Of a DNA stretch of 24,000 bases, positions 770 to 23,347 are shown piece by piece. Each line of letters starts with the position of its first letter. The stretch's first letter is position 1. Position numbers and translations under genes: made by a program. The DNA is from Candidatus Gastranaerophilales bacterium (GTDB taxonomy: Bacteria; Cyanobacteriota; Vampirovibrionia; Gastranaerophilales; Gastranaerophilaceae), in assembly GCA_910586855.1 (NCBI GenBank), contig CAJUJH010000001.1, positions 807,393 to 831,392 of the forward strand. Direction: 5' to 3'. A model generated the notes under the pieces. The model saw only the letters and a program-made list of their open reading frames with translations. It did not search any database and was not told the origin of the DNA.

Positions 770-3283
770 CTATTTTTGGTCACCGTAGGTTTCGTATCCT
801 TTTTTCTTCATTTCATCAATTACGGTGTCGTTGATGGCTTCATCAAGACCTTCGCCTTTATCGTTGAACCATCCACTGTACTCGCCTTCGTTGTTATAGT
901 TATCTTCATCTGGCGTGTCTACACCTTCCAGTGAGCCTTCACCAAATGTTGCACCACCAACCGCTTTTGCTAAATCTGCAGCATCATTAAGTTCTTGTTT
1001 AATGCGGTCATTAAATGCTTTTTCTTCATCTTTGTCAATCAATATGTCACCATTTCCGCCGTTTTTCTCTTTGAGCTCGGTTGCTTGTGTGTGAATTTTT
1101 TCGGCTAAATCATATACTGATTGCATTTTGTCATTTAATGGGTCATTGTATGCTTTTTCAACATCGGCTTCAGATAATTGAGAGAACATATTTGTACCCA
1201 TAACCGCATCGTTTTCAAGAGTTGCTGCTATGTAATCATCATCTTCCATTGCTTGTTCTGCAGTGAAGTTATTGCCGTTCATTGTTACATTAAACGTTGT
1301 TTGAACCTGAGTATTATTAATGTTGTATGAATCTTCATTATTTGTTGGTGTCAGGTCAATCTTTGTAATTCCTGCATCCCAGGCACTTATGAAGCTTTGT
1401 TGAACACTTACGGTTCCATCGCCGTTATCAATTTCTTTAAGCTGCATCATCATAATTCCGCTTAAAGCTTCTTCGCCTTCGATAACGTTTTGACCTTCAG
1501 GAATGCCGTATTTTGTGCGGAATCCTGCCATACCTTCATCGTTATCTGAACCTAGAAGGTCTGTAATGCCGTCATATGTGCCATTACCATCATCTGCCAT
1601 AAAGTATAATCTGCTATCACCGTTTTTAATAGATATCGGGTCTGATCTGCCTGTGTCATTAACATCATTTTGAGTGGTTTTTGTTGATTGGATAACCTGA
1701 GAATCCTCCCATTGACCACCTTTTCCTGTGAAGCTCTTGATTTTTTCTGCAAGAGGAGTGTAGCTTGGGTCTGAATTAAATCTTACGCCGCCTTGACCTT
1801 GTTCAAAATCTTTTTGTTCACCCAATGAATAACCTATATCAAGACCGGGGAAGAATTGGTCGAGAGTATACATTGCTTCTTTGAATGAGAATCCGCCTGC
1901 TGCAAGTTCATCAACAAGTTTCATTGCATTTGCCATATCTTTTTCATTGGCAGGAGCAGTGCTTACCTCAGGCATTCCTGCTGTATTGTTTGCAATAGAC
2001 ATCACTGCTGTAAATATTTCCGGACCTCTGCCTGTAATTGTTCTGCCGGCAGCAGTTCGTTCATCCGGTGTACCATGACCGTATGGTACGGTATAGTTTC
2101 CGTTACCATTATCTTTAATGCCTATTCCGCCAAATGCATCAGCCAATATAGACATTATTTCACTGTTTGTTGCGCCGTTTTCCGCTAATTGCCATACAAG
2201 GCTGCCTTCCTGAATGGTTGTAGCATCTTTTTTGTCTCCAAATAATGCAGTTTCTAATGCCTGCATCATAGTATTATCTTTGCCGTAAGCATATTGGTCG
2301 CCTGAACCATGGGTTGTATTACCTGCTAAATCTTTGATTTGTTGTGTTATATTTCCTATGTTGCCGTCATTTCTTGTAGCGGCTTTGCCATCATTTGTAA
2401 CTTGGTTGTTATCGTTTCTGTCATTTAAATCAATACCATATTTATCAGCAAGCTCAGCAATTTTTGTTTCTTTTTCATATGTGAAAACAGGAACCTTTGA
2501 ATCATTATTTGCGTTAGAATAATAATTGTTATTTTGAGCAGTCATATTGCCCTTTTGCTGATTTAATACATTAATAATGGCTGAGGCATTCTTTAAGCCT
2601 TTCATTGCATTATCGCTATCTGAAATACATCTGTCGATATCTACCATATATTTATTCAAAGTACTGTTTTCGTTACCCATATCTTGATATAATTTTGCAA
2701 TATCAGCAAGACTTGAGTCTCCACTCATAAGACTGTCCAGGCTCGCATTAAATGTTTCTTTAAATGTTGTATTAACGCCAGCTTGTCTGTTTCTTTTTGT
2801 TTTATCGACAGCATCCGTAATGGCTTGACTGATTGCACTTTGTAATTGCTTTTCATATTTATTTTGTCTGCCGATGATATCCATACTGATATCACCAATC
2901 TTATCGCCGGTTTCACCAATTTCTTTATTTATTTTTGCAAGCTCTGTTTCATATTCTTTAAGCTTTGCTTCCCATTTTTCAATTTCATCATTAATATTTT
3001 TAATTTGTTTATCGATATCATCTATTGCTTTTTGACCGCCATTATTGTAGGTTTCTGTTCCCCAAAGAGTAAAATCGCCTTTGCTGATATCAGCTAAACC
3101 TGAAGCTAAACCATCTTTTTCTTTCATCCAATCTTGTACTTGTTTTAGCATGTCTGCTTGTACGTTTTGTGTTTTTGAAATGTCAGTTGCCATCTTCTTT
3201 AAATCCTTTCGCACTTTATTAAATACTTTATTGTCTTTAATTTTGCTGTATATATCAAATATATACATAGTGTTTTTCGGCAT
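770..3283 (-). CDS. Large orphan acidic, Asn/Asp-rich protein with an N-terminal coiled-coil region; no recognisable signal peptide
   Basis: 837-codon ORF. The N-terminal ~180 aa show heptad-like charge patterns (DKQIKNINDEIEKWEAKLKEYETELAKINKEIGETGDKIG). The centre and C-terminus are rich in D/N/G, with Ca-loop-like stretches (MADDGNGTYDGITDLLGSDNDEG). The start is uncertain. The ATG at 3283 lies 6 nt after a hairpin. M31 (ATG, rc of 3191-3193) has GAAAGGA upstream. Confidence 0.8.
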   Translation of the reverse strand: MPKNTMYIFDIYSKIKDNKVFNKVRKDLKKMATDISKTQNVQADMLKQVQDWMKEKDGLASGLADISKGDFTLWGTETYNNGGQKAIDDIDKQIKNINDEIEKWEAKLKEYETELAKINKEIGETGDKIGDISMDIIGRQNKYEKQLQSAISQAITDAVDKTKRNRQAGVNTTFKETFNASLDSLMSGDSSLADIAKLYQDMGNENSTLNKYMVDIDRCISDSDNAMKGLKNASAIINVLNQQKGNMTAQNNNYYSNANNDSKVPVFTYEKETKIAELADKYGIDLNDRNDNNQVTNDGKAATRNDGNIGNITQQIKDLAGNTTHGSGDQYAYGKDNTMMQALETALFGDKKDATTIQEGSLVWQLAENGATNSEIMSILADAFGGIGIKDNGNGNYTVPYGHGTPDERTAAGRTITGRGPEIFTAVMSIANNTAGMPEVSTAPANEKDMANAMKLVDELAAGGFSFKEAMYTLDQFFPGLDIGYSLGEQKDFEQGQGGVRFNSDPSYTPLAEKIKSFTGKGGQWEDSQVIQSTKTTQNDVNDTGRSDPISIKNGDSRLYFMADDGNGTYDGITDLLGSDNDEGMAGFRTKYGIPEGQNVIEGEEALSGIMMMQLKEIDNGDGTVSVQQSFISAWDAGITKIDLTPTNNEDSYNINNTQVQTTFNVTMNGNNFTAEQAMEDDDYIAATLENDAVMGTNMFSQLSEADVEKAYNDPLNDKMQSVYDLAEKIHTQATELKEKNGGNGDILIDKDEEKAFNDRIKQELNDAADLAKAVGGATFGEGSLEGVDTPDEDNYNNEGEYSGWFNDKGEGLDEAINDTVIDEMKKKGYETYGDQK

Positions 3284-3336: not shown

Positions 3337-5469
3337 CTATTTTTCTTTAGTTGAAAATGAAAGATTGGCGGTGTTTTTCCAGATTATATATTGTAAATAT
3401 TGGGTTTTATTATCAATATCTTTGTAGCTTGTTCTTATATTATACACAGGGGTAAAGCTTGCATTTTCAAGCTTTTTATAAGGAATCCCGCACTGAATTA
3501 ATACAACTTTATTGTTTTGTTCACTCTTTTCAAAGTAGCAGTTTTTCGGGTATTTTTTTTCTAAAAGCGCCTGTTTATCCTTGTTGTTAAATGCATTTAT
3601 ATCTTGATTAGGATATGGGGTGATTATATAATCATATTTTTTAACAATATCTGCATTAAATCTGGAAAGTATTAATTCATCAGCTTTTATATGTTTTTTG
3701 GCAGCAATAAATATTGCAAGCTGTGTTAGGGCATAATTGTTGTGAAATATTCCAACAGTTTTATATTCTTCAATATATGAAAACAATGTTCCATATATTT
3801 TGCAATCAGGTTTGTATCTTTTAAAAAAATCATAATTAAGACATCTAACATTATATGTAAATGTGTTAAAATTTCTTTCTTTTTTATACATATCTAAAAG
3901 GCTGTAAAATGGTCTGGCAGCCAAGTGCCCAGATGCAACAAGGAAATAAAACATTGCAAATATTATAACCAAAGTTTTATAGAAATTGTTCTTTTTGAAA
4001 TAGGTAAATATTAATACCGGTGTGCTTATTACTACAAAAGTTGTAATAAATCTTATGCTATAAACCATATATCCTATTGCAAAACTTAATACAACAATGT
4101 TTATATAAAATAAAAGCCCTAATACAGGTATTATAATCTTATTTTCTTGTATATTTTTTCTGTATATTAATTTTGTGATTAATAATGCAATAGATAATAA
4201 AATTGCTGGTATGAGTGCTAAAATACCAGTTATCCCAAAGCCTATAAATTGTTCCGAGAGAGATGAGTTTAAAGATTCCATTCTCATAAGAACCCCTGTC
4301 TCCTGTGGTATATGCAAAATAGCAAATAGGGCACTTTGAACTTTATACATTAAAGGGGTTAAATATATTCCCCAAGTAAAACCTGAGAAATCTATAAGCT
4401 GGATATTATATGTTACAAAATTTGCTAAAAAACCTTTAAAACCGCCAAAAAATCCATGTCCGTTGATTGATATTTCAGAACCCAGCGGGTTTGAATAATC
4501 TATAAGGTTTAAAATATAGTTGTAGCTTGAAAATATTATAAAATTAATTATTAAAAAGCAAATAAATTTTATAAACTTTTTTATTCCCGCTGTTTTCTTC
4601 TTGAATATCAGGTAAATAAAATATGCTGCTAAAAGCGGCAATCCTGCCATAAATGCCGTACTTTTTACGCCAAGCGCTATTGCAAAAGAAAGGCTTGAAA
4701 AATATCCTTTTATTATATTGTCTTGTTTTACATAATCAATAAAAAATAGTACCGAATAAAAAAGTAAAACACCTGTCAATAAATCAGTCTGAGTGCTTGA
4801 AATTTGAGCAATTATACCGGCAAACGATGAAAATATGAAAATTGCCCATAATCGTTTTCTGTATGATATCTTAAATTTTTCTAAAAAGGTCCAAATGCCT
4901 GCTATTCCAAAAAAGTAACTTGAAAATTGTAAAAATCCAAAACCAAAATCTTTATTTGTAAGTGAAAAAATCCAAGTATAAATAAGTTCTGAATTAATCG
5001 GCATAACATGGTTTCTGATGTCTGCAGTATCAAAATGATGTATAAAACCTTTTTGTGCCCAAATAAGAGCTCTGTATGTGTGATAACTTAAAGCATCCGG
5101 TTCATTTACAGGTAAAAAAGCACATAAAATAAAACTTATTACTATTAAAAAAATAAATCCGGCACCTAAAATTGCAAGCCCCTTATCAAGTTTGAAGCAA
5201 TTTAAAATCCTCTCTGCTCTGTTTTTCAGTTCTGTTACATCCGGCTTTAATACGGGTTTTTTATTTTTTAACCACAATATTAATGAAATTATAAAAAATA
5301 TTAAATTTAATAAAATAATTCCAATCGGGCTTATTGCTTTAAAAAGAGACAACAACTCAATATTTAAAATAATGAGTCCTAAAAATATTATAAAAAAATA
5401 CAAAAAGCACCCGGCAAATGCCGACAAAAAATATGAAGTTAAAATAGTTAGCAGCAAGGATAATATCAT
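3337..5469 (-). CDS. Polytopic membrane protein, probably a GT-C fold (ArnT/PMT-like) glycosyltransferase
   Basis: 710 aa with more than 12 predicted hydrophobic helices. An acidic motif (PVNEPDALSYHTYRALIW) follows the early helices, as in the GT-C first loop. There is a soluble C-terminal domain of about 170 aa. The family assignment is inferred from architecture only. Confidence 0.5.
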   Translation of the reverse strand: MILSLLLTILTSYFLSAFAGCFLYFFIIFLGLIILNIELLSLFKAISPIGIILLNLIFFIISLILWLKNKKPVLKPDVTELKNRAERILNCFKLDKGLAILGAGFIFLIVISFILCAFLPVNEPDALSYHTYRALIWAQKGFIHHFDTADIRNHVMPINSELIYTWIFSLTNKDFGFGFLQFSSYFFGIAGIWTFLEKFKISYRKRLWAIFIFSSFAGIIAQISSTQTDLLTGVLLFYSVLFFIDYVKQDNIIKGYFSSLSFAIALGVKSTAFMAGLPLLAAYFIYLIFKKKTAGIKKFIKFICFLIINFIIFSSYNYILNLIDYSNPLGSEISINGHGFFGGFKGFLANFVTYNIQLIDFSGFTWGIYLTPLMYKVQSALFAILHIPQETGVLMRMESLNSSLSEQFIGFGITGILALIPAILLSIALLITKLIYRKNIQENKIIIPVLGLLFYINIVVLSFAIGYMVYSIRFITTFVVISTPVLIFTYFKKNNFYKTLVIIFAMFYFLVASGHLAARPFYSLLDMYKKERNFNTFTYNVRCLNYDFFKRYKPDCKIYGTLFSYIEEYKTVGIFHNNYALTQLAIFIAAKKHIKADELILSRFNADIVKKYDYIITPYPNQDINAFNNKDKQALLEKKYPKNCYFEKSEQNNKVVLIQCGIPYKKLENASFTPVYNIRTSYKDIDNKTQYLQYIIWKNTANLSFSTKEK

Positions 5470-6924: not shown

Positions 6925-7704
6925 ATGCAAAGAAAAACTTATCTTCAATATTGTTTAAATAATAAAGGTAAAATTTCAAGGTGGATGTCAAATATGATGC
7001 CGCTTTCTTTTCATATTGCACCTTTTAGATGGTATAAATCCACCTCCCAATCTGATGCATATAAATATACGGGTCTTGTAATAGATGCACTTAATGCCTG
7101 GCAGAATGCTGCCGGTGGATGCATAGGTTTTAATGTAGTAAATGCTTTGATTGATTCCCACGTTAACCTTGAGTGGAAGCGTGTAGATAGAAAGTCATTA
7201 GGGCATTGTCAATTTCATTATGACCCAAACGGCAGATATTATTCAGCAGAAGTTAAAATAGGGCTGTCTGACGGTATTATTTGTAAAAAATATATGGATG
7301 AAGCTGAGGTTTATCATACTATCCTCCATGAAATCGGGCATGCCTTGGGTCTTGGGCACTCGCCTTATAAAGAAGATATTATGTACACTCCGCACCAATA
7401 TGGTATTGTAAAACTTTCTCAAAGAGATGTTCAAACTCTTCGCTGGCTTTATAAATTTGATATAGGAAAATCTCCTTCTGAAATTCTTGCTCAGTATCCA
7501 AATTCAGGAGCTAAGGATTTAGATGAACTTATTATGATATTATCCGGCGAGAAATCGGAATTTCAAAAAGTAAAAGACGGGCTTTCGTCTCGCCCGGGTA
7601 AAGATTTAATTCAAGAAAGCCAAAATATAGGCGACTTAAAAATGTATTTATTACAGGTTCATAATAATTTTGTTATACGAAAACCCGCTCCGCCAAAGGA
7701 ATAG
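6925..7704 (+). CDS. Matrixin-like metzincin zinc metalloprotease (peptidase M10-like); no signal peptide
   Basis: HEIGHALGLGHS (HExxHxxGxxH), then the Met-turn IMY, then LSQRDVQTLRWLY. The last matches the MMP-type L..DD..GIQ.LY motif. The start is uncertain. The ATG at 6925 has TGTTATAAT (6906-6914) 10 nt upstream and no SD. An internal ATG-ATG near 6993 follows AAGGTGG. Confidence 0.8.
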   Translation: MQRKTYLQYCLNNKGKISRWMSNMMPLSFHIAPFRWYKSTSQSDAYKYTGLVIDALNAWQNAAGGCIGFNVVNALIDSHVNLEWKRVDRKSLGHCQFHYDPNGRYYSAEVKIGLSDGIICKKYMDEAEVYHTILHEIGHALGLGHSPYKEDIMYTPHQYGIVKLSQRDVQTLRWLYKFDIGKSPSEILAQYPNSGAKDLDELIMILSGEKSEFQKVKDGLSSRPGKDLIQESQNIGDLKMYLLQVHNNFVIRKPAPPKE

Positions 7705-7736: not shown

Positions 7737-7997
7737 TTACCCTGTCAGTGTGAAACCTTCTGGCAATTCTTCTTCTATCATTTTTACAAAATCAGATGCT
7801 TGCACTCCAAGTGCCTCTGAAAGCTTAAATACAGTTGTTAATTGCGGGTCCTTAAGACCGCGCTCAAGGCTATTTAAAAGTGATGTTGAAATTTCATATT
7901 CCATAGATAAAATATATAAGCTTTTATTGCCTCTGAGCTTTTTTAGGATTTTTCCTGCAGCAGTGCGTATTAGTTTTTTCTTATCTTCTTGTTGCAT
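7737..7997 (-). CDS. XRE/Cro-C1 family helix-turn-helix transcriptional regulator
   Basis: 86 aa. The HTH_3-like core is LRGNKSLYILSMEYEISTSLLNSLERGLKDPQLTTVFKLSEALGV. There is no SD. TATTAT (rc of 8005-8010) lies 7 nt before the ATG. Confidence 0.85.
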   Translation of the reverse strand: MQQEDKKKLIRTAAGKILKKLRGNKSLYILSMEYEISTSLLNSLERGLKDPQLTTVFKLSEALGVQASDFVKMIEEELPEGFTLTG

Positions 7998-8044: not shown

Positions 8045-8051
8045 ATGAAAT

Positions 8052-8072
8052 AATTCACAAAGTTTGTGAATT
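8052..8072. promoter_or_regulatory. Perfect palindrome AATTCACAAA-g-TTTGTGAATT (candidate operator 2), overlapping the putative promoter of the glycine-rich gene
   Basis: 10-bp arms with a 1-nt centre. It overlaps TTCACA (8054-8059)-N16-TATAGA (8076-8081). It shares the GTGAAT half-site with operator 1. Confidence 0.6.
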
Positions 8073-8113
8073 AAGTATAGAGAAGCTGTTTATCGAAATT
8101 GGAGCTATTTTAA

Positions 8114-11100
8114 ATGAAAATTGTTTATCTAAAGCCTTTTAAAAGGTTACGTTCTTTTGCTGTACAAAAATTACAGTTTATATCTAAGGTGAAAAATCAA
8201 GGTCGCAGAGTGCAATTTATTGTATCGACATTGAAATTAGGATTAAGAAAATCCTTTGCCTTCTCCCTTGTTGAAATGCTTATGGCATTATTGGTAGCAT
8301 CGCTGCTTTTAGCAGCGCTTGCCCCTGTAATGACAAAGAGGATGACAGATAATGAAGTAAAAATAATATCAGAAGCAGCTAATTATGATAAAGATAGCGT
8401 AATAACTATTTTTACAGATGCATCTGAACAAAAAGAATTTAATATACCAACAGATGCAAGCAGAATAACATTAACAGCAGTAGGTGCAGGCGGTGCAGGC
8501 GGTAATGCATTATACGGTAATAAAGAATTTACAACAAGCGGAACATTTACCATACCAAACGATGTTAACAAGATAAGAGTATTTATGGTAGGTGCGGGAG
8601 GAGGCGGAGCTTCCGGAGGTATGGGAAATGGTATGGCATACGCTAATGTCCCTGCAATAGGAGCTGTTGAAACAACACTTACAAATGCCGGTACATATAC
8701 ACTTTCAGATGTTGTTACCATTCCAAATACATATACAGCACCTGTTCTAAATTCTTATTGTGATAAATTCAGTGCATTAAAAAAATGGGTAATGAAATCA
8801 AATACCTCAACACAAATAAATCCTGGAGCCAAAATTTCAAAAATTGATGGCAGTGCAATTGTCACATTTAATAAATTTACTGCATGCGGCGGAGGCGGAG
8901 GCGGGGGATATACTTCAGGCGGTATTGGTGCAAGCGGAGGAGGTTCTGGCGGATATGTAACAAATCAAACATTAGCCGCATCTGCTGCTGCCTCTGGTAT
9001 TAAATTTATAGTAGGTGCTGGTGGTAGTGGTGCGTTGCAAGCAAGCTATGGTCAGGGAGGTCCCGGCGGTGGCACGGGAGGTGCAGAAGGCGGAGGCAGG
9101 GGTGTACCTCAAGGTGGTCAGAATGGGACTAACGGTTCTGGCGGTCGCGGAGGTTATAGAACATACTCTGATATGTCAGGGGCACATGGGTTTTCGGGTT
9201 TTGGCGGCGGAGGTGGTGGCGGAACTGCAATATTATCTGACACAAGTGCAATTGCAGAAATTGGCGGCGGAGGTGGCGGTGCTGGTGGAACATGGGGTAG
9301 AAGTGATGGAACCATTTCTTCCAGCTTTATTTCTGGTGCTGGCGGCGGAGGCGGTGGACGTGGTGCTGGCGGCGGAGGCGGTTCATTAAGACTGCAAATG
9401 GTGAACGTTGGGTGTCAGGGACGTTCCGGTACAACAGGCGGTAATAATGGTAGTAGGGGTCTATGTGGTTTTGCACCCGATGATGGTGGTAGATATCCTG
9501 AACAGCAAGGCGGTGCAGGGTATGATGGTGGTGGCGGAGGCGGTGGAGGGGCATATTTAGATACCCCCTCTACAGAAGGGAGAACATGTACTGTGGCTAA
9601 TGGGTCTACGACATCAAGCGGTGCTGGTGGAGGTGGCGGTGGATTTACCTCACGAACCTATCCTGATGTTAGCCACGCATTTGGCGGTGGAGGGGGCGGG
9701 GGAAAAGGCGGACGCGGGGGAACCGGCGGTCCAGGCGGAGGTATTGGTGGCTCAATATCTACCATCTTTGGAAGCAGTAACTGCAATGGAGGCGATTCTG
9801 GAGTTGACGGTAAACCCGGTGCTATGCGTGTATGGTATTCTATTGCAGGTGTTACCAACGGTCTTCAGTGTGCATATTCTACCCAATCAAATGGCGGAGG
9901 CGGAGGTGGTGCAGGTCAAGTATGGATGGGTGAAATTAATGTAACGCCGGGGCAGACTATTACATTAAACATAGGACAAGGCGGTGCTGCTCAAAATATC
10001 GGCGGAGAAAACGGAAACGACGGTACACCAACAAGTATTGTTGTTAATGGTAATACATATTCTGTATCAGGCGGAAAAGGCGGAAAGTTTGAAAACGATA
10101 ATACATATATAGCTAATTCAGGAGGTCTTGGCGGCGGAATAAAAACCACTAATTATAGTTCTTCTGCTATATATAAAGATTGGCTTAAATTAAATGAAAA
10201 AGGAATAACTCTAACAGGAGGAAATAACGGCGGACAAGGATATCTAAAAACAGACAGTGAAAGCAGTGCAGGCGGAAATGGCGGAAGTGCATTAAAAATG
10301 GATGGTACTTATGCTGCAGGCGGTGTTGGCGGAGCTGCAGTTACCGGTGGTGCTAATTCAACAAATTATGGTACAGGCGGAGGCGGAGGAGGAGCAGGTA
10401 CTGATGGAACATTTGGAAACGGAGGCAGAGGTGCTAACGGATATATATACATTGAATGGGGTGGAACAAACGGAGGCGGAGGAACAAATGGTGAAATTGT
10501 TCAAAGAATACTTACCAACTTTGATATGAATGATAGAAAGATGTTAATAAATATTGGAAAAGGCGGAAGTAATTCATCAGGTGATGGTAATGGAGGCAAT
10601 ACAACAATTTCTGTTAAATCCGGAGGAAAAAACGTTGTTGTTACAGCAAGAGGAGGTATTAAAGGAAACATTGGCACATCTGACGCCAATACCCATGGAG
10701 CAGAAATGATATTTCCATCTGACTACAATAACCTATACAAGGACTTTGTTCAAAACAATCTGAATATTATTAACGGACAAAAAGGAATAAATGATTATGG
10801 CGGTATGGGCGGATATCTGGCTTGTATATATTATTCAAAGGACAAAGACGGTAACAGAGTATGCAATACATCTGTTGATTCCAATGATGGAGTTGAAGAA
10901 ACAGCAGGACCAACAAGACCCGGATGCGGAGGAAGCGCTATACCATCTCCGCTATATGAAGCCATCTGTAATGCTAAATCAACATCGGTATCTGCTGATG
11001 GAGGTAATGGAACCTTTGGCGGCGGAGGCGGCGGCGGAGCAGTATTAAACAGAATGGGAGGCAAAGGAGGCAATGGCGGCAATGGCTTTGTAATTCTTGA

Positions 11101-11119
11101 ATACAAGAGTGTACAATAG
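8114..11119 (+). CDS. Giant glycine-rich protein with a prepilin-type (class III) N-terminal signal and multiple glycine-rich, tail-fibre-like modules
   Basis: 1001 aa, with GGAG 9 nt upstream. The motif RKSFA|FSLVEMLMALLVASLLLAALAPV (8258-8329) fits [GAS]|[FM]xxxE with Glu at +5, followed by a hydrophobic helix. The rest repeats a beta-strand followed by a Gly run (ITLTAVGAGGAGG, IRVFMVGAGGGGASGG, KFTACGGGGGGG, IKFIVGAGGSGA, VTPGQTITLNIGQGGAA, GYIYIEWGG, GFVILEYK). Gly runs reach 7-8 residues. The leader is long (49 aa). Alternative starts at GTG (V33) or TTG (L40) are possible. Confidence 0.85.
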   Translation: MKIVYLKPFKRLRSFAVQKLQFISKVKNQGRRVQFIVSTLKLGLRKSFAFSLVEMLMALLVASLLLAALAPVMTKRMTDNEVKIISEAANYDKDSVITIFTDASEQKEFNIPTDASRITLTAVGAGGAGGNALYGNKEFTTSGTFTIPNDVNKIRVFMVGAGGGGASGGMGNGMAYANVPAIGAVETTLTNAGTYTLSDVVTIPNTYTAPVLNSYCDKFSALKKWVMKSNTSTQINPGAKISKIDGSAIVTFNKFTACGGGGGGGYTSGGIGASGGGSGGYVTNQTLAASAAASGIKFIVGAGGSGALQASYGQGGPGGGTGGAEGGGRGVPQGGQNGTNGSGGRGGYRTYSDMSGAHGFSGFGGGGGGGTAILSDTSAIAEIGGGGGGAGGTWGRSDGTISSSFISGAGGGGGGRGAGGGGGSLRLQMVNVGCQGRSGTTGGNNGSRGLCGFAPDDGGRYPEQQGGAGYDGGGGGGGGAYLDTPSTEGRTCTVANGSTTSSGAGGGGGGFTSRTYPDVSHAFGGGGGGGKGGRGGTGGPGGGIGGSISTIFGSSNCNGGDSGVDGKPGAMRVWYSIAGVTNGLQCAYSTQSNGGGGGGAGQVWMGEINVTPGQTITLNIGQGGAAQNIGGENGNDGTPTSIVVNGNTYSVSGGKGGKFENDNTYIANSGGLGGGIKTTNYSSSAIYKDWLKLNEKGITLTGGNNGGQGYLKTDSESSAGGNGGSALKMDGTYAAGGVGGAAVTGGANSTNYGTGGGGGGAGTDGTFGNGGRGANGYIYIEWGGTNGGGGTNGEIVQRILTNFDMNDRKMLINIGKGGSNSSGDGNGGNTTISVKSGGKNVVVTARGGIKGNIGTSDANTHGAEMIFPSDYNNLYKDFVQNNLNIINGQKGINDYGGMGGYLACIYYSKDKDGNRVCNTSVDSNDGVEETAGPTRPGCGGSAIPSPLYEAICNAKSTSVSADGGNGTFGGGGGGGAVLNRMGGKGGNGGNGFVILEYKSVQ

Positions 11120-11160
11120 ATGATTTAAACAATAACTTTACGATAAATAAACAACTTTTT

Positions 11161-11196
11161 AGGGGCGCGTTTGTAACCTTTGCGCCTCTTTTCTTT
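11161..11196 (+). terminator. Rho-independent terminator of the glycine-rich gene
   Basis: aggggcgc (11161-11168) pairs with gcgcctct (11182-11189), followed by TTTTCTTT. Confidence 0.7.
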
Positions 11197-11465: not shown

Positions 11466-11487
11466 GGGGCTTTATATTTTAAGCCCC
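11466..11487. terminator. Bidirectional hairpin between the small ORF and the lepA 3' end
   Basis: ggggctt (11466-11472) pairs with aagcccc (11481-11487). It directly abuts the lepA stop codon (11488-11490). Confidence 0.55.
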
Positions 11488-22363: not shown

Positions 22364-23347
22364 ATGGTTAGTTTAATTTCATCCATTAAGGCAAACATAG
22401 TTAACAATTATAAAAATGCAGAACCTTTAAAAACTGCATCAAAAGCTAATGAAGCAAATCTGTTTGGTTTAAAAAATAGTGAAGAAAATGCTCTTTTTGA
22501 ACTAAACTTTGATGAAACCATTACCCCTCAGGCGCCTAAATATAAAGCTGGAAATTATGGTAATTTTACAAAGCATGCAGGTAATGGCAAGTTTGATGCT
22601 GATGCAATACAGGGGCAAATTGGTGACTGCGGCTTGCTATCTACCTTGCGCGCATTAAGAAACTCTGAAGGCGGTCAAAAAGCTGTTGGTGAAATAATGA
22701 GCTATTCTGCAGATACCGGCGAATGGAGTTTTAATTTTAAAACCAAAGATTTTGATGGTACAAATCCTATTGTTGTAACTCAAGCTGAAATTGACCAGGC
22801 TATAGCTGAAAAAAGAGTAAGTAAGGGCGATGATGATATTACGGCAATGGAACTTGCGGTAGAAAAGTATTTACAGCAAATTGGCGATAATGGCACACAG
22901 GATAATACGGTAAAACAAATATTTGATATACAAAATAAGAGTAGAAATGCAAGAATTGCAGCCGGTGCTGAAGATAAGGGCTATTTAGATGGTATATCAC
23001 CCTATATCGGCTATATATTTACAGGAAGTATTCCAAAACCATTGCATACCTATGATTCAAATCAGCAGCTTGCTGCAGAAGCTCTTGAAAGCTTTGATAA
23101 ATCTACAGATATGTTGATTTTTTCTCAAATACAATCAGGCGATGTAGCGAGTGGAGGAGATAACCCCTTCCTTATGCTGGGTGATGACCAGATTCTTGGT
23201 AATCATGCCTATACGGTTTGTGATGTTGAAGGCGATAATGTAATTCTTAGAGAATCAAATAACCCTTCTGAAACAATAACCGTAACTAAAGAAGAACTTC
23301 TAAACTGTGAGGGTAAAAACTCATTGTATGTATATTCTGCTAAATAA
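22364..23347 (+). CDS. Calpain-like (peptidase C2-like) cysteine protease; no signal peptide
   Basis: 327 aa, with GGAG 7 nt upstream. The catalytic-Cys motif IQGQIGDCGLLSTLRAL matches calpain QGxLGDCWLL. The His motif is LGNHAYTV (calpain GHAYSV). The Asn region is ILRESNNP (calpain LRNPWG). Confidence 0.65.
   Translation: MVSLISSIKANIVNNYKNAEPLKTASKANEANLFGLKNSEENALFELNFDETITPQAPKYKAGNYGNFTKHAGNGKFDADAIQGQIGDCGLLSTLRALRNSEGGQKAVGEIMSYSADTGEWSFNFKTKDFDGTNPIVVTQAEIDQAIAEKRVSKGDDDITAMELAVEKYLQQIGDNGTQDNTVKQIFDIQNKSRNARIAAGAEDKGYLDGISPYIGYIFTGSIPKPLHTYDSNQQLAAEALESFDKSTDMLIFSQIQSGDVASGGDNPFLMLGDDQILGNHAYTVCDVEGDNVILRESNNPSETITVTKEELLNCEGKNSLYVYSAK

Follow-up and report, generated by a model that had tools for sequence, protein, structure and literature searches.

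In this study, we analyzed a 24,000-nucleotide stretch of contig CAJUJH010000001.1 from a Candidatus Gastranaerophilales bacterium (hereafter called the window), in which the open reading frame (ORF) at 8114-11119 of the forward strand, starting with ATG, encodes a protein of 1001 amino acids (aa). We found that this gene probably specifies the precursor of a 'headless' modular type IV pilin-like surface protein, which belongs to a family of Gastranaerophilales. An earlier interpretation of the same DNA, made without database searches (the sequence-only reading), had proposed a prepilin signal fused to tandem glycine-rich modules, and the 1001-aa ORF, the five runs of 7-8 Gly, and the module ends that it quoted were all present; what it observed was confirmed, and its interpretation was supported in part. 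The ORF is a real gene and its coding nature, as opposed to a chance low-complexity reading frame, was supported by a match of the whole protein to Pfam Gly_rich_2 (PF21722; 61.3 bits against a gathering threshold of 24.3), by 253 homologues, and by a confident AlphaFold2 model. The G+C content was 0.54 over the ORF compared with about 0.33 in its flanks. Since the GGN codons of glycine would give such a G+C content, this peak is not evidence for a foreign origin of the ORF. The coordinates of all features are listed in Table 1.

We determined the features of the N-terminus. Residues 45-80 read RKSFA/FSLVEMLMALLVASLLLAALAPVMTKRMTDN, in the context LRKSFA/FSLVEMLMALLVASLLLAALAPVMTKRM (the slash marks the predicted cleavage site), with A49 at position -1, F50 at +1, and E54 at +5. 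In mature numbering, the helix has F1, E5, S14, and P22 (P71), and classical type IV pilins share this register. It contains the single hydrophobic stretch of the whole protein, which spans 21-25 residues with a mean Kyte-Doolittle value of 2.3 over residues 55-74. Among 72 aligned sequences with an overall identity of about 40%, residues F50, S51, L52, E54, L56, A58-S63, L65, A68-V72, and T74 were invariant. The residue at -1 was small in 98 of 98 genomic copies (Ala in 87, Gly in 10, and Ser in 1). In a divergent subfamily of 790-836 aa, the sequence of the helix differed and F+1, E+5, and P+22 were kept. Members of this subfamily have canonical short leaders, such as MKKRA/FTLAELLTAVLVISVIMVALAPVITKR, ...KG/FTLSELLVSVLIISILMVVLAPVITKR, ...KA/FSLIELLLGLLIVTIIFAAMVPVLTK, and MKKA/FSLIELLVSLIIISV..., and the leaders of distant members are 4-8 aa long.

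The weak NCBIfam matches of this N-terminus were all to pilin or pseudopilin N-termini (HpsB, ComGC, ComGE, and ComGF), and at least six relatives carry a precomputed PF07963 (N_methyl) annotation. The sole match of the N-terminus in a phmmer search of PDB was PilE1 of S. sanguinis (E 0.18), in which F50 aligned with mature residue 1 and P22 was in register. When a 45-aa N-terminal query was used to search for short pilins with the same helix, 7 fragments of 48-73 aa and nothing else were obtained, and these were uninformative. A motif scan for other prepilin-like ORFs or short pilins found none in 1.31 Mb of flanks around 90-odd family copies. On the conservation of the motif across the family, the N-terminus very probably carries a prepilin-type (class III) signal, as had been proposed from the single sequence. 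Residues are conserved here as they would be at a prepilin peptidase site with an alpha1N helix behind it, and not as in a generic signal anchor.

The position of the start codon was examined by comparing seven syntenic loci (the window, L029, L045, L056, L067, L082, and L084). The intergenic DNA, the GGAG at 8101-8104, which precedes the ATG at 8114 by 9 nt, the ATG itself, and the first ~12 codons (MKIVYLKPFKRL) were almost identical at these loci. Past these codons, the leaders were unrelated in content and length until the codons for [A]FSLVE were reached. The ATG was in frame and stop-free to FSLVE in 7 of 7 loci, with leaders of 16-58 aa. Because it is conserved and in frame in all seven, ATG 8114 is, on this comparative evidence, the true start, upstream of FSLVE as the sequence-only reading had assumed. 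The alternative starts GTG 8190 and TTG 8231, which would give a conventional short leader, were rejected, since no usable Shine-Dalgarno sequence precedes either of them and the ATG with its GGAG is conserved in all seven loci. Starts downstream of FSLVE, as chosen by some gene callers (MLMALLVAS... or MALLVAS...), were ruled out by the protein-level invariance of [A/G]FSLVE.

The leader that results from this start contains 13 K/R and no D/E. Across the family, 110 distinct leaders had lengths of 4-185 aa (median 35 aa); their K+R content was 16.8% against 5.2% for D+E, and 107 of them were net positive. The leaders of gene-called homologues were not conserved in sequence, and conservation began abruptly at -1/-2. 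A translated leader that varies this freely would fit a segment that is removed from the mature protein.

Two direct repeats of TGTTTATC, at 8088-8095 and 8122-8129, flank the GGAG and the ATG. Within the 350 nt that precede the F codon in family genes, this element was enriched about 21-fold on the sense strand (37 matches in 33.8 kb, compared with 0.05 per kb per strand elsewhere), with no matches on the antisense strand. It was present in 25 of 97 copies, across cassettes with different regulators, L004 included. In addition, many leaders hold in-frame short palindromic repeat-like text (...HCE(R/G)..SDEAI..., ...AELVSAS..., ...VTLNLFQGL..., and ...LPRSRRSLAMT...), for example P0013, P0029, P0044-P0067, P0116, and P0137, as well as L045 and L067 upstream of the FSLVE codons. 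This observation suggests that mobile repeats may have been inserted into leader-coding DNA without breaking the frame.

We next describe the body of the protein, in which glycine makes up 25.8% of the residues of the whole chain. Runs of at least seven Gly (7-8) start at residues 259, 364, 472, 524, and 969, with five further runs of six Gly, and the module-end motifs are PGQTITLNIGQGGAA at 612, GTPTSIVVNGNTYSVSGGKGG at 637, GYIYIEWGG at 776, and GFVILEYK at 991. When the modules were scanned separately with Gly_rich_2, module 1 (scanned as aa 87-580) scored 19.3 bits with its N-terminal edge only, while the matches of modules 2 and 3 covered profile positions 31-225 and 35-226 of 226, respectively. 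Therefore, the body comprises three modules, of which the first is greatly expanded. PHROG 863, a family of the tail category, matched aa 135-172 (E 8e-9), and this was the sole phage-family match.

An AlphaFold2 model built on 72 homologues had a mean predicted local distance difference test score (pLDDT) of 81, with residues 93-1000 mostly at 80-97. In module 1, strands at 95-300 and 570-577 enclose a Gly-rich coil with pLDDT of ~50-90, which forms a very large glycine-run insertion. The pLDDT was 85-97 in module 2 and mostly 80-94 in module 3. Residues 1-92 were predicted with low confidence: within them residues 53-67 alone were helical, with pLDDT below 50, residues 68-92 were unstructured, and DSSP assigned neither helix nor strand in the interval 68-94. 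In other subfamilies, the linker stretch is Gly/Ser-rich text, such as NVSGTGG.

The predicted body was then compared with known structures. The top Foldseek matches in PDB were the fibre of cyanophage Pam3 (7ypx), the tail tip of mycobacteriophage Bxb1 (9d93), and the TNF-like/glycine-rich (TG) domains of ALK/LTK. Against the predicted viral structures of BFVD, 48 matches were obtained at E<=1e-3, mostly to phage 'glycine-rich domain', tail-fibre, and minor tail proteins; single-domain matches had template-modelling (TM) scores of 0.43-0.47 and root-mean-square deviations of 4-5 Å. A search of the family profile against PDB chains gave chance-level matches alone (E>0.5). In the predicted model, a beta-sandwich carries a glycine-rich insertion like that of solved TG domains. 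According to the Pam3 paper, the fold consists of a TNF-like and a glycine-rich domain and resembles S16 gp38 and ALK (PMC9608196). Taken together, these results allow us to state with high confidence that the body consists of three TG modules, and the claim of phage tail-fibre-type glycine-rich modules was upheld by Gly_rich_2, by PHROG 863, and by Foldseek against both PDB and BFVD.

The distribution of the family was examined at the protein and genome levels. The 253 homologues (E<=1e-5) are 840-1135 aa long and all have Gly_rich_2, which also matched 52 of 52 relatives tested. The pilin-type helix and the Gly modules co-occurred in every homologue with an intact N-terminus, so that the fusion noticed in the single sequence holds for the family. 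A scan with the helix peptide, using one genome per species, gave 362 matches and 156 places confirmed by tblastn, of which 79 loci were kept. Nearly all of these 79 loci came from metagenome-assembled genomes (MAGs) labelled Gastranaerophilales, Melainabacteria, or 'uncultured Vampirovibrio sp.'; the remaining ones were labelled 'uncultured bacterium', plus one 4.4-kb contig labelled Bacteroides. This contig (L050, CAZULD010000167.1) was binned as 'uncultured Bacteroides sp.', and its label is most simply a binning error, not an occurrence outside Gastranaerophilales. Among the loci retrieved, single MAGs held at least 18, 17, 12, and 10 distinct copies. A phmmer search with the body only, against 1.84 billion cluster representatives, gave 52 clusters; those examined were family members or fragments, save a marginal 287-aa Gly-only protein (E 2e-4). 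On these sequence matches, the family appears so far to be confined to Gastranaerophilales. No paper describing this family was found in the literature, and literature searches on PF21722/Gly_rich_2 and on Melainabacteria prepilin peptidase gave nothing relevant.

Each big gene is commonly accompanied by a regulator gene. The immediate upstream neighbour was a divergent small gene of helix-turn-helix (HTH)/XRE type, encoding 70-131 aa, in 65 of 94 family copies, and the same arrangement was found at loci of the distant subfamily (L087 and L088). The divergent XRE gene, which had been taken to control the ORF in the window, is thus a conserved partner of the family. The upstream small proteins fall into several sequence clusters, and those tested matched HTH_3, weakly matched DUF6471, or had no Pfam match. 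The long palindromes of the intergenic region are specific to each regulator cluster. In the window, the palindrome TTCACGAACGTGAA near the XRE start codon had the same sequence in the intergenic region of all seven syntenic orthologues, while the stretch of the second palindrome (8051-8073) varied in sequence among the orthologues. Half-sites of TTCAC/GTGAA are common to both palindromes, and both may function as operators. No recurrent downstream gene, such as a chaperone or other partner, was found across the family copies. These results demonstrate that the family is almost certainly organized as multigene cassettes, each consisting of a big gene and its own regulator. At L014 (6996-9506) and L026 (7044-9542), an additional family member immediately precedes another one in tandem and in the same orientation, so that some copies are paired without an intervening regulator.

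The big gene was the fastest-evolving gene at its locus. When the window was compared with the syntenic loci, the flanking proteins were 63-100% identical (LepA 95-96%, ribosomal protein S11 99-100%, and the XRE protein 74-86%), whereas the family protein was 26-42% identical. Its body was nearly identical to that of the P0002/P0005 gene at an unrelated locus (L002), which has a different leader and regulator. The protein identity to P0002/P0005 was ~100% over aa 51-200, 46-66% over aa 251-550, and 98-100% over aa 601-1001 (96-100% in the flanks of the variable core overall), and the leader was unrelated. At the DNA level, 8248-8907 and 9680-11181 were 92% and 96% identical to L002, respectively, and blastn detected no similarity to L002 between the two blocks or upstream of them. 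The left boundary of the similarity lies 13 nt before the Phe codon. In another case, three paralogues in one MAG shared 5' segments of 340-520 nt that were 97-99% identical. The simplest reading of these mosaics is that segments may be exchanged between cassettes. Phase variation by slipped-strand mispairing was considered and rejected: the glycine runs use mixed codons, and just trivial repeats of 2-3 copies were present, none of them slippage-prone.

The neighbours of the family copies were also examined, and genes for type IV filament components adjoin five copies. At L006 and L035, the widespread paralogue P0078 is preceded, at a distance of 2.7-8.4 kb, by genes for a secretin, an MshEN-T2SSE ATPase, and T2SSF, and at L049, L058, and L062 a 459-aa MshEN-T2SSE ATPase is encoded just beyond the regulator. 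The statement that the gene sits alone applies within the 24-kb window, in which no pilB/C/D/M-Q genes were found; it does not apply to the family, since the gene is one of at least 10-18 paralogues per genome, a few of which adjoin secretin, MshE-type ATPase, or PilC-like genes. A previous report listed pilA, pilB, pilC, pilT, and pilD in the genome of 'Ca. Gastranaerophilus termiticola' (PMC5877343). At L006 (368-1540, forward strand), the secretin-ATPase-platform genes are directly preceded by a gene for a 390-aa protein that has a single membrane segment and matches nothing in Pfam. This protein, 94% conserved in L035, may be an unrecognized component of the machine.

Several observations weigh against reading the protein as pilin-like. 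On aa 45-69, N_methyl scored 17.7 bits against a threshold of 21.2, and TIGR02532 scored 11.3 against 16.3. The residue at -1 is Ala, not the usual Gly, and the 49-aa leader much exceeds the ~5-30 aa of known prepilins. No globular pilin head, consisting of an alpha1C helix and an antiparallel beta-sheet, was found in the AlphaFold2 model, whose N-terminal confidence is low, and a headless N-terminus of this kind would fall outside the definition of a pilin module. Foldseek matches to solved structures had weak E-values (1e-2 to 1). Most copies lie among unrelated housekeeping genes. Neither the window nor the 1.31 Mb of flanks yielded a prepilin peptidase, a major pilin, or a pilM-Q gene, and a motif scan of the flanks detected no peptidase A24 motif (GxGDxK). 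As the profile score of this protein alone is sub-threshold, the prepilin question has to be decided by the homologues, and 41 of 52 family members matched N_methyl at E<=0.01. Because the head domain is a defining feature of a pilin and was not found, we refrain from classing the protein as a true pilin.

The first of three alternatives, in line with the lack of a pilin head in the model, is that a class III signal is present and the protein is not a filament subunit: it would be processed by the peptidase, handed to a type IV filament or T2SS-like machine, and then secreted or tethered to the surface, for example as a coat or binding protein, in the manner of archaeal non-pilin class III proteins. 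A mature protein of ~950 aa would be far bulkier than a subunit able to pack along a filament, and 10-18 paralogues per genome, scattered away from pilus genes, look like a substrate family rather than the minor pilins of one operon. However, the invariance of alpha1N among paralogues that are ~40% identical elsewhere exceeds what recognition by the peptidase needs. This invariance includes the pilin kink residue P22 and points to helix-helix packing with partner subunits. An alpha1-only pilin is also known, namely PilA-N of Geobacter. We regard this alternative as unlikely.

An uncleaved signal anchor would make the protein a type II inner-membrane protein with its glycine-rich body in the periplasm or cell envelope, and this we consider improbable. 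The long leader, the sub-threshold N_methyl score, and the lack of a peptidase gene nearby would be expected of such an anchor. An anchor would not be expected to keep a small residue at -1, Phe at +1, Glu at +5 within the membrane helix, and Pro at +22 across divergent subfamilies, or to show conservation that sets in abruptly at -1/-2 behind a leader free in length and sequence, as for a part that is cut off. Cleavage by signal peptidase I after A68-L69-A70 is likewise unlikely because of the Pro at +1, and a hypervariable body is typical of exposed surface proteins. Finally, that the gene is a prophage or phage-derived tail-fibre gene encoding a phage structural protein is highly improbable in spite of the fold and profile similarity to phage fibre and minor tail proteins, since it lies among recR, ybaB, lepA, and ribosomal protein genes with no phage genes, holds a syntenic position in seven genomes, has neither a baseplate-attachment domain nor a conserved downstream chaperone gene, and begins with a membrane helix, which is no feature of tail fibres.

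For the headless pilin-like protein, we propose the following route. The basic leader would keep the N-terminus in the cytoplasm while the single hydrophobic helix enters the inner membrane. A prepilin peptidase would then cut between Ala49 and Phe50 and probably methylate Phe50, as the invariant [A/G]-F-S-L-V-E suggests. The alpha1N helix of 25 residues, with its Glu5 and Pro22, may serve as the handle by which a type IV filament machine, presumably comprising a secretin, an MshE/PilB-type ATPase, and a PilC-type platform, extracts and presents the protein. Presentation would most likely take place at the filament tip, as for an adhesin-bearing minor pilin. The ~900-residue body of TG modules, a kind of module with which phage fibre tips and ALK/LTK bind their ligands, may itself bind a ligand, and the glycine-run insertion of module 1, where variability is concentrated, may be the part that determines specificity. 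The divergent XRE-type regulator, which shares a 116-bp intergenic region with the big gene, would control transcription via the palindromes. Many cassettes that diverge and recombine could provide a variable repertoire of surface binding proteins. The class III/type IV filament route is likely used; that the filament machine displays the protein as a variable adhesin is an even call.

A stronger version would be a programmed repertoire of 10-18 cassettes, each with a private XRE switch and a headless pilin bearing TG modules, shuffled between loci, so that the filament machine displays interchangeable receptor-binding tips. We offer this version as tentative and somewhat doubtful. If true, phage-like binding domains would here serve a bacterial system of adhesive or antigenic variation, and proteins without a pilin head would form a new class of type IV filament substrate.

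Gastranaerophilales are common uncultured members of the human and animal gut and non-photosynthetic relatives of cyanobacteria. To our knowledge, their means of attachment and of sensing the environment have not been described. The family occupies as much as ~50 kb, or roughly 2% of a small genome, and joins the export handle of type IV pilins to the TG binding fold of phage fibres and ALK, a pairing that has not been reported before. Display on filaments, if it occurs, would widen the concept of modular pilins to alpha1N-only subunits and to a multigene, individually regulated repertoire, and the proteins would then be candidates for host-, glycan-, or microbe-binding specificity in Gastranaerophilales. 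Should the N-terminus serve secretion only, the family would instead illustrate, in bacteria, the use of class III signals by non-pilin cargo.

Table 1. Features of the pilin-like gene and its surroundings (window coordinates)
Feature	Position	Strand	Basis
XRE-family HTH regulator, 86 aa, divergent from the big ORF	7737..7997	-	Pfam HTH_3, 27.1 bits against a threshold of 23
Perfect palindrome TTCACGAACGTGAA, candidate operator near the XRE start codon	8032..8045	.	Palindrome scan
Second palindrome TAATTCACAAA-G-TTTGTGAATTA (TAATTCACAAAGTTTGTGAATTA), 11-nt arms, candidate operator nearer the big gene	8051..8073	.	Palindrome scan
Conserved translation-start region	8088..8129	+	DNA-level conservation in 7/7 syntenic loci
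Leader peptide, aa 1-49, ends in Ala49	8114..8260	+	ORF reading, composition, syntenic comparison
Class III mature N-terminus, alpha1N-type helix, aa 50-74, FSLVEMLMALLVASLLLAALAPVMT	8261..8335	+	Conservation, profile matches
Linker, aa 75-92 (KRMTDNEVKIISEAANYD...), predicted non-globular	8336..8389	+	pLDDT 36-47
Module 1, aa 93-578, expanded TNF-like beta-sandwich, ends ...GKPGAMRVWYS	8390..9847	+	AlphaFold2, Gly_rich_2 edge match
Hypervariable core of module 1, ~aa 266-522	8908..9679	+	No blastn similarity to the L002 gene
Module 2, aa 579-785, Gly_rich_2, ends GYIYIEWGG	9848..10468	+	48.8 bits alone
Module 3, aa 786-1001 and stop, Gly_rich_2, ends GFVILEYKSVQ	10469..11119	+	33.0 bits alone
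Terminator-like hairpin (tentative), between the big gene and convergent lepA	11466..11487	+	Consensus scan

The window is ordinary chromosome, with recR, ybaB, an M10-like peptidase gene, and the HTH_3 gene before the big ORF, and lepA (convergent), PEBP, UbiA, a ribosomal protein/rpoA cluster, and UDP-GlcNAc 2-epimerase beyond it; no phage genes were found near the big ORF. Scans of the region for sigma-70 promoters and terminators gave site counts no higher than in shuffled sequence. The 259-aa matrixin-like (Peptidase_M10) gene at 6925-7704 (+) directly adjoins the XRE gene. Its position is kept in all seven syntenic loci, with 80-86% identity, and it is not tied to other family copies. 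Two further ORFs, one of 837 aa that is acidic and Asn/Asp-rich (770-3283, -) and one of 710 aa with many hydrophobic segments (3337-5469, -), have no Pfam match, and ORFs of similar size occupy their positions in the syntenic loci. A 327-aa ORF at 22364-23347 (+), without a Pfam match at E<=1e-3, contains QGQIGDCGLLSTLRAL, which we take to resemble the catalytic Cys motif of papain/calpain-type enzymes.

The features of the family were compared with those of known systems. As in phage fibre tips, Gly_rich_2 modules of the same fold family have glycine runs as a conserved stem and variable segments between them. Unlike phage fibres, the protein carries a membrane helix with a prepilin motif instead of a baseplate- or fibre-docking domain, has three tandem modules of which the first is ~490 aa, lacks an adjacent chaperone gene, and is encoded in a chromosomal, syntenic, housekeeping setting. 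The suggestion of a domesticated phage receptor-binding module reduces to a resemblance at the level of the fold. The TG supradomain of ALK/LTK (7nx1, 7ls0, and 7mzy) is also a Foldseek neighbour, with a beta-sandwich and a glycine-rich insertion. This likeness is weak (E 0.08-1, 13-17% identity) and holds at the fold level only, and ALK/LTK themselves are eukaryotic receptor kinases that bind cytokines.

The pilE/pilS system of Neisseria is a surface-variation system in which a constant N-terminus is combined with recombining variable bodies. By analogy, the present family has an invariant pilin helix, a hypervariable remainder, many copies, and mosaic segments that may have moved between loci, although gene conversion is here inferred from a few mosaics only. 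Unlike the silent cassettes of pilS, the copies in this family look complete and separately promoted, and have their own regulators.

The closest counterparts may be the modular pilins as defined by Raynaud et al. (2021), in which an effector module is grafted on a pilin; more than 1,200 such proteins with 264 architectures and up to 860 aa have been reported, including phage-fibre-related modules (peptidase S74) (PMC8179133). Examples are PilB (vWA) and PilC (lectin) of S. sanguinis, CofB of enterotoxigenic Escherichia coli (ETEC), TcpB of V. cholerae, and GspK of the type II secretion system (T2SS) (PMC8179133). Since modular pilins are known, the earlier statement that this is 'not a described pilin class' was overstated (PMC8179133). 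Unlike these proteins, the pilin module here appears to be reduced to alpha1N, with no globular pilin module predicted in the model, and the leader is 49 aa long (family median 35 aa). The three TG/Gly_rich_2 modules are absent from the architectures quoted in that report (PMC8179133), and the genes lie outside a pilus operon, as 10-18 hypervariable paralogues per genome with an XRE gene each. In common with modular pilins, which are thought to be exposed at the tip, the protein combines a class III signal and alpha1N with a linker and bulky modules that are not pilus-specific and are predicted to bind ligands.

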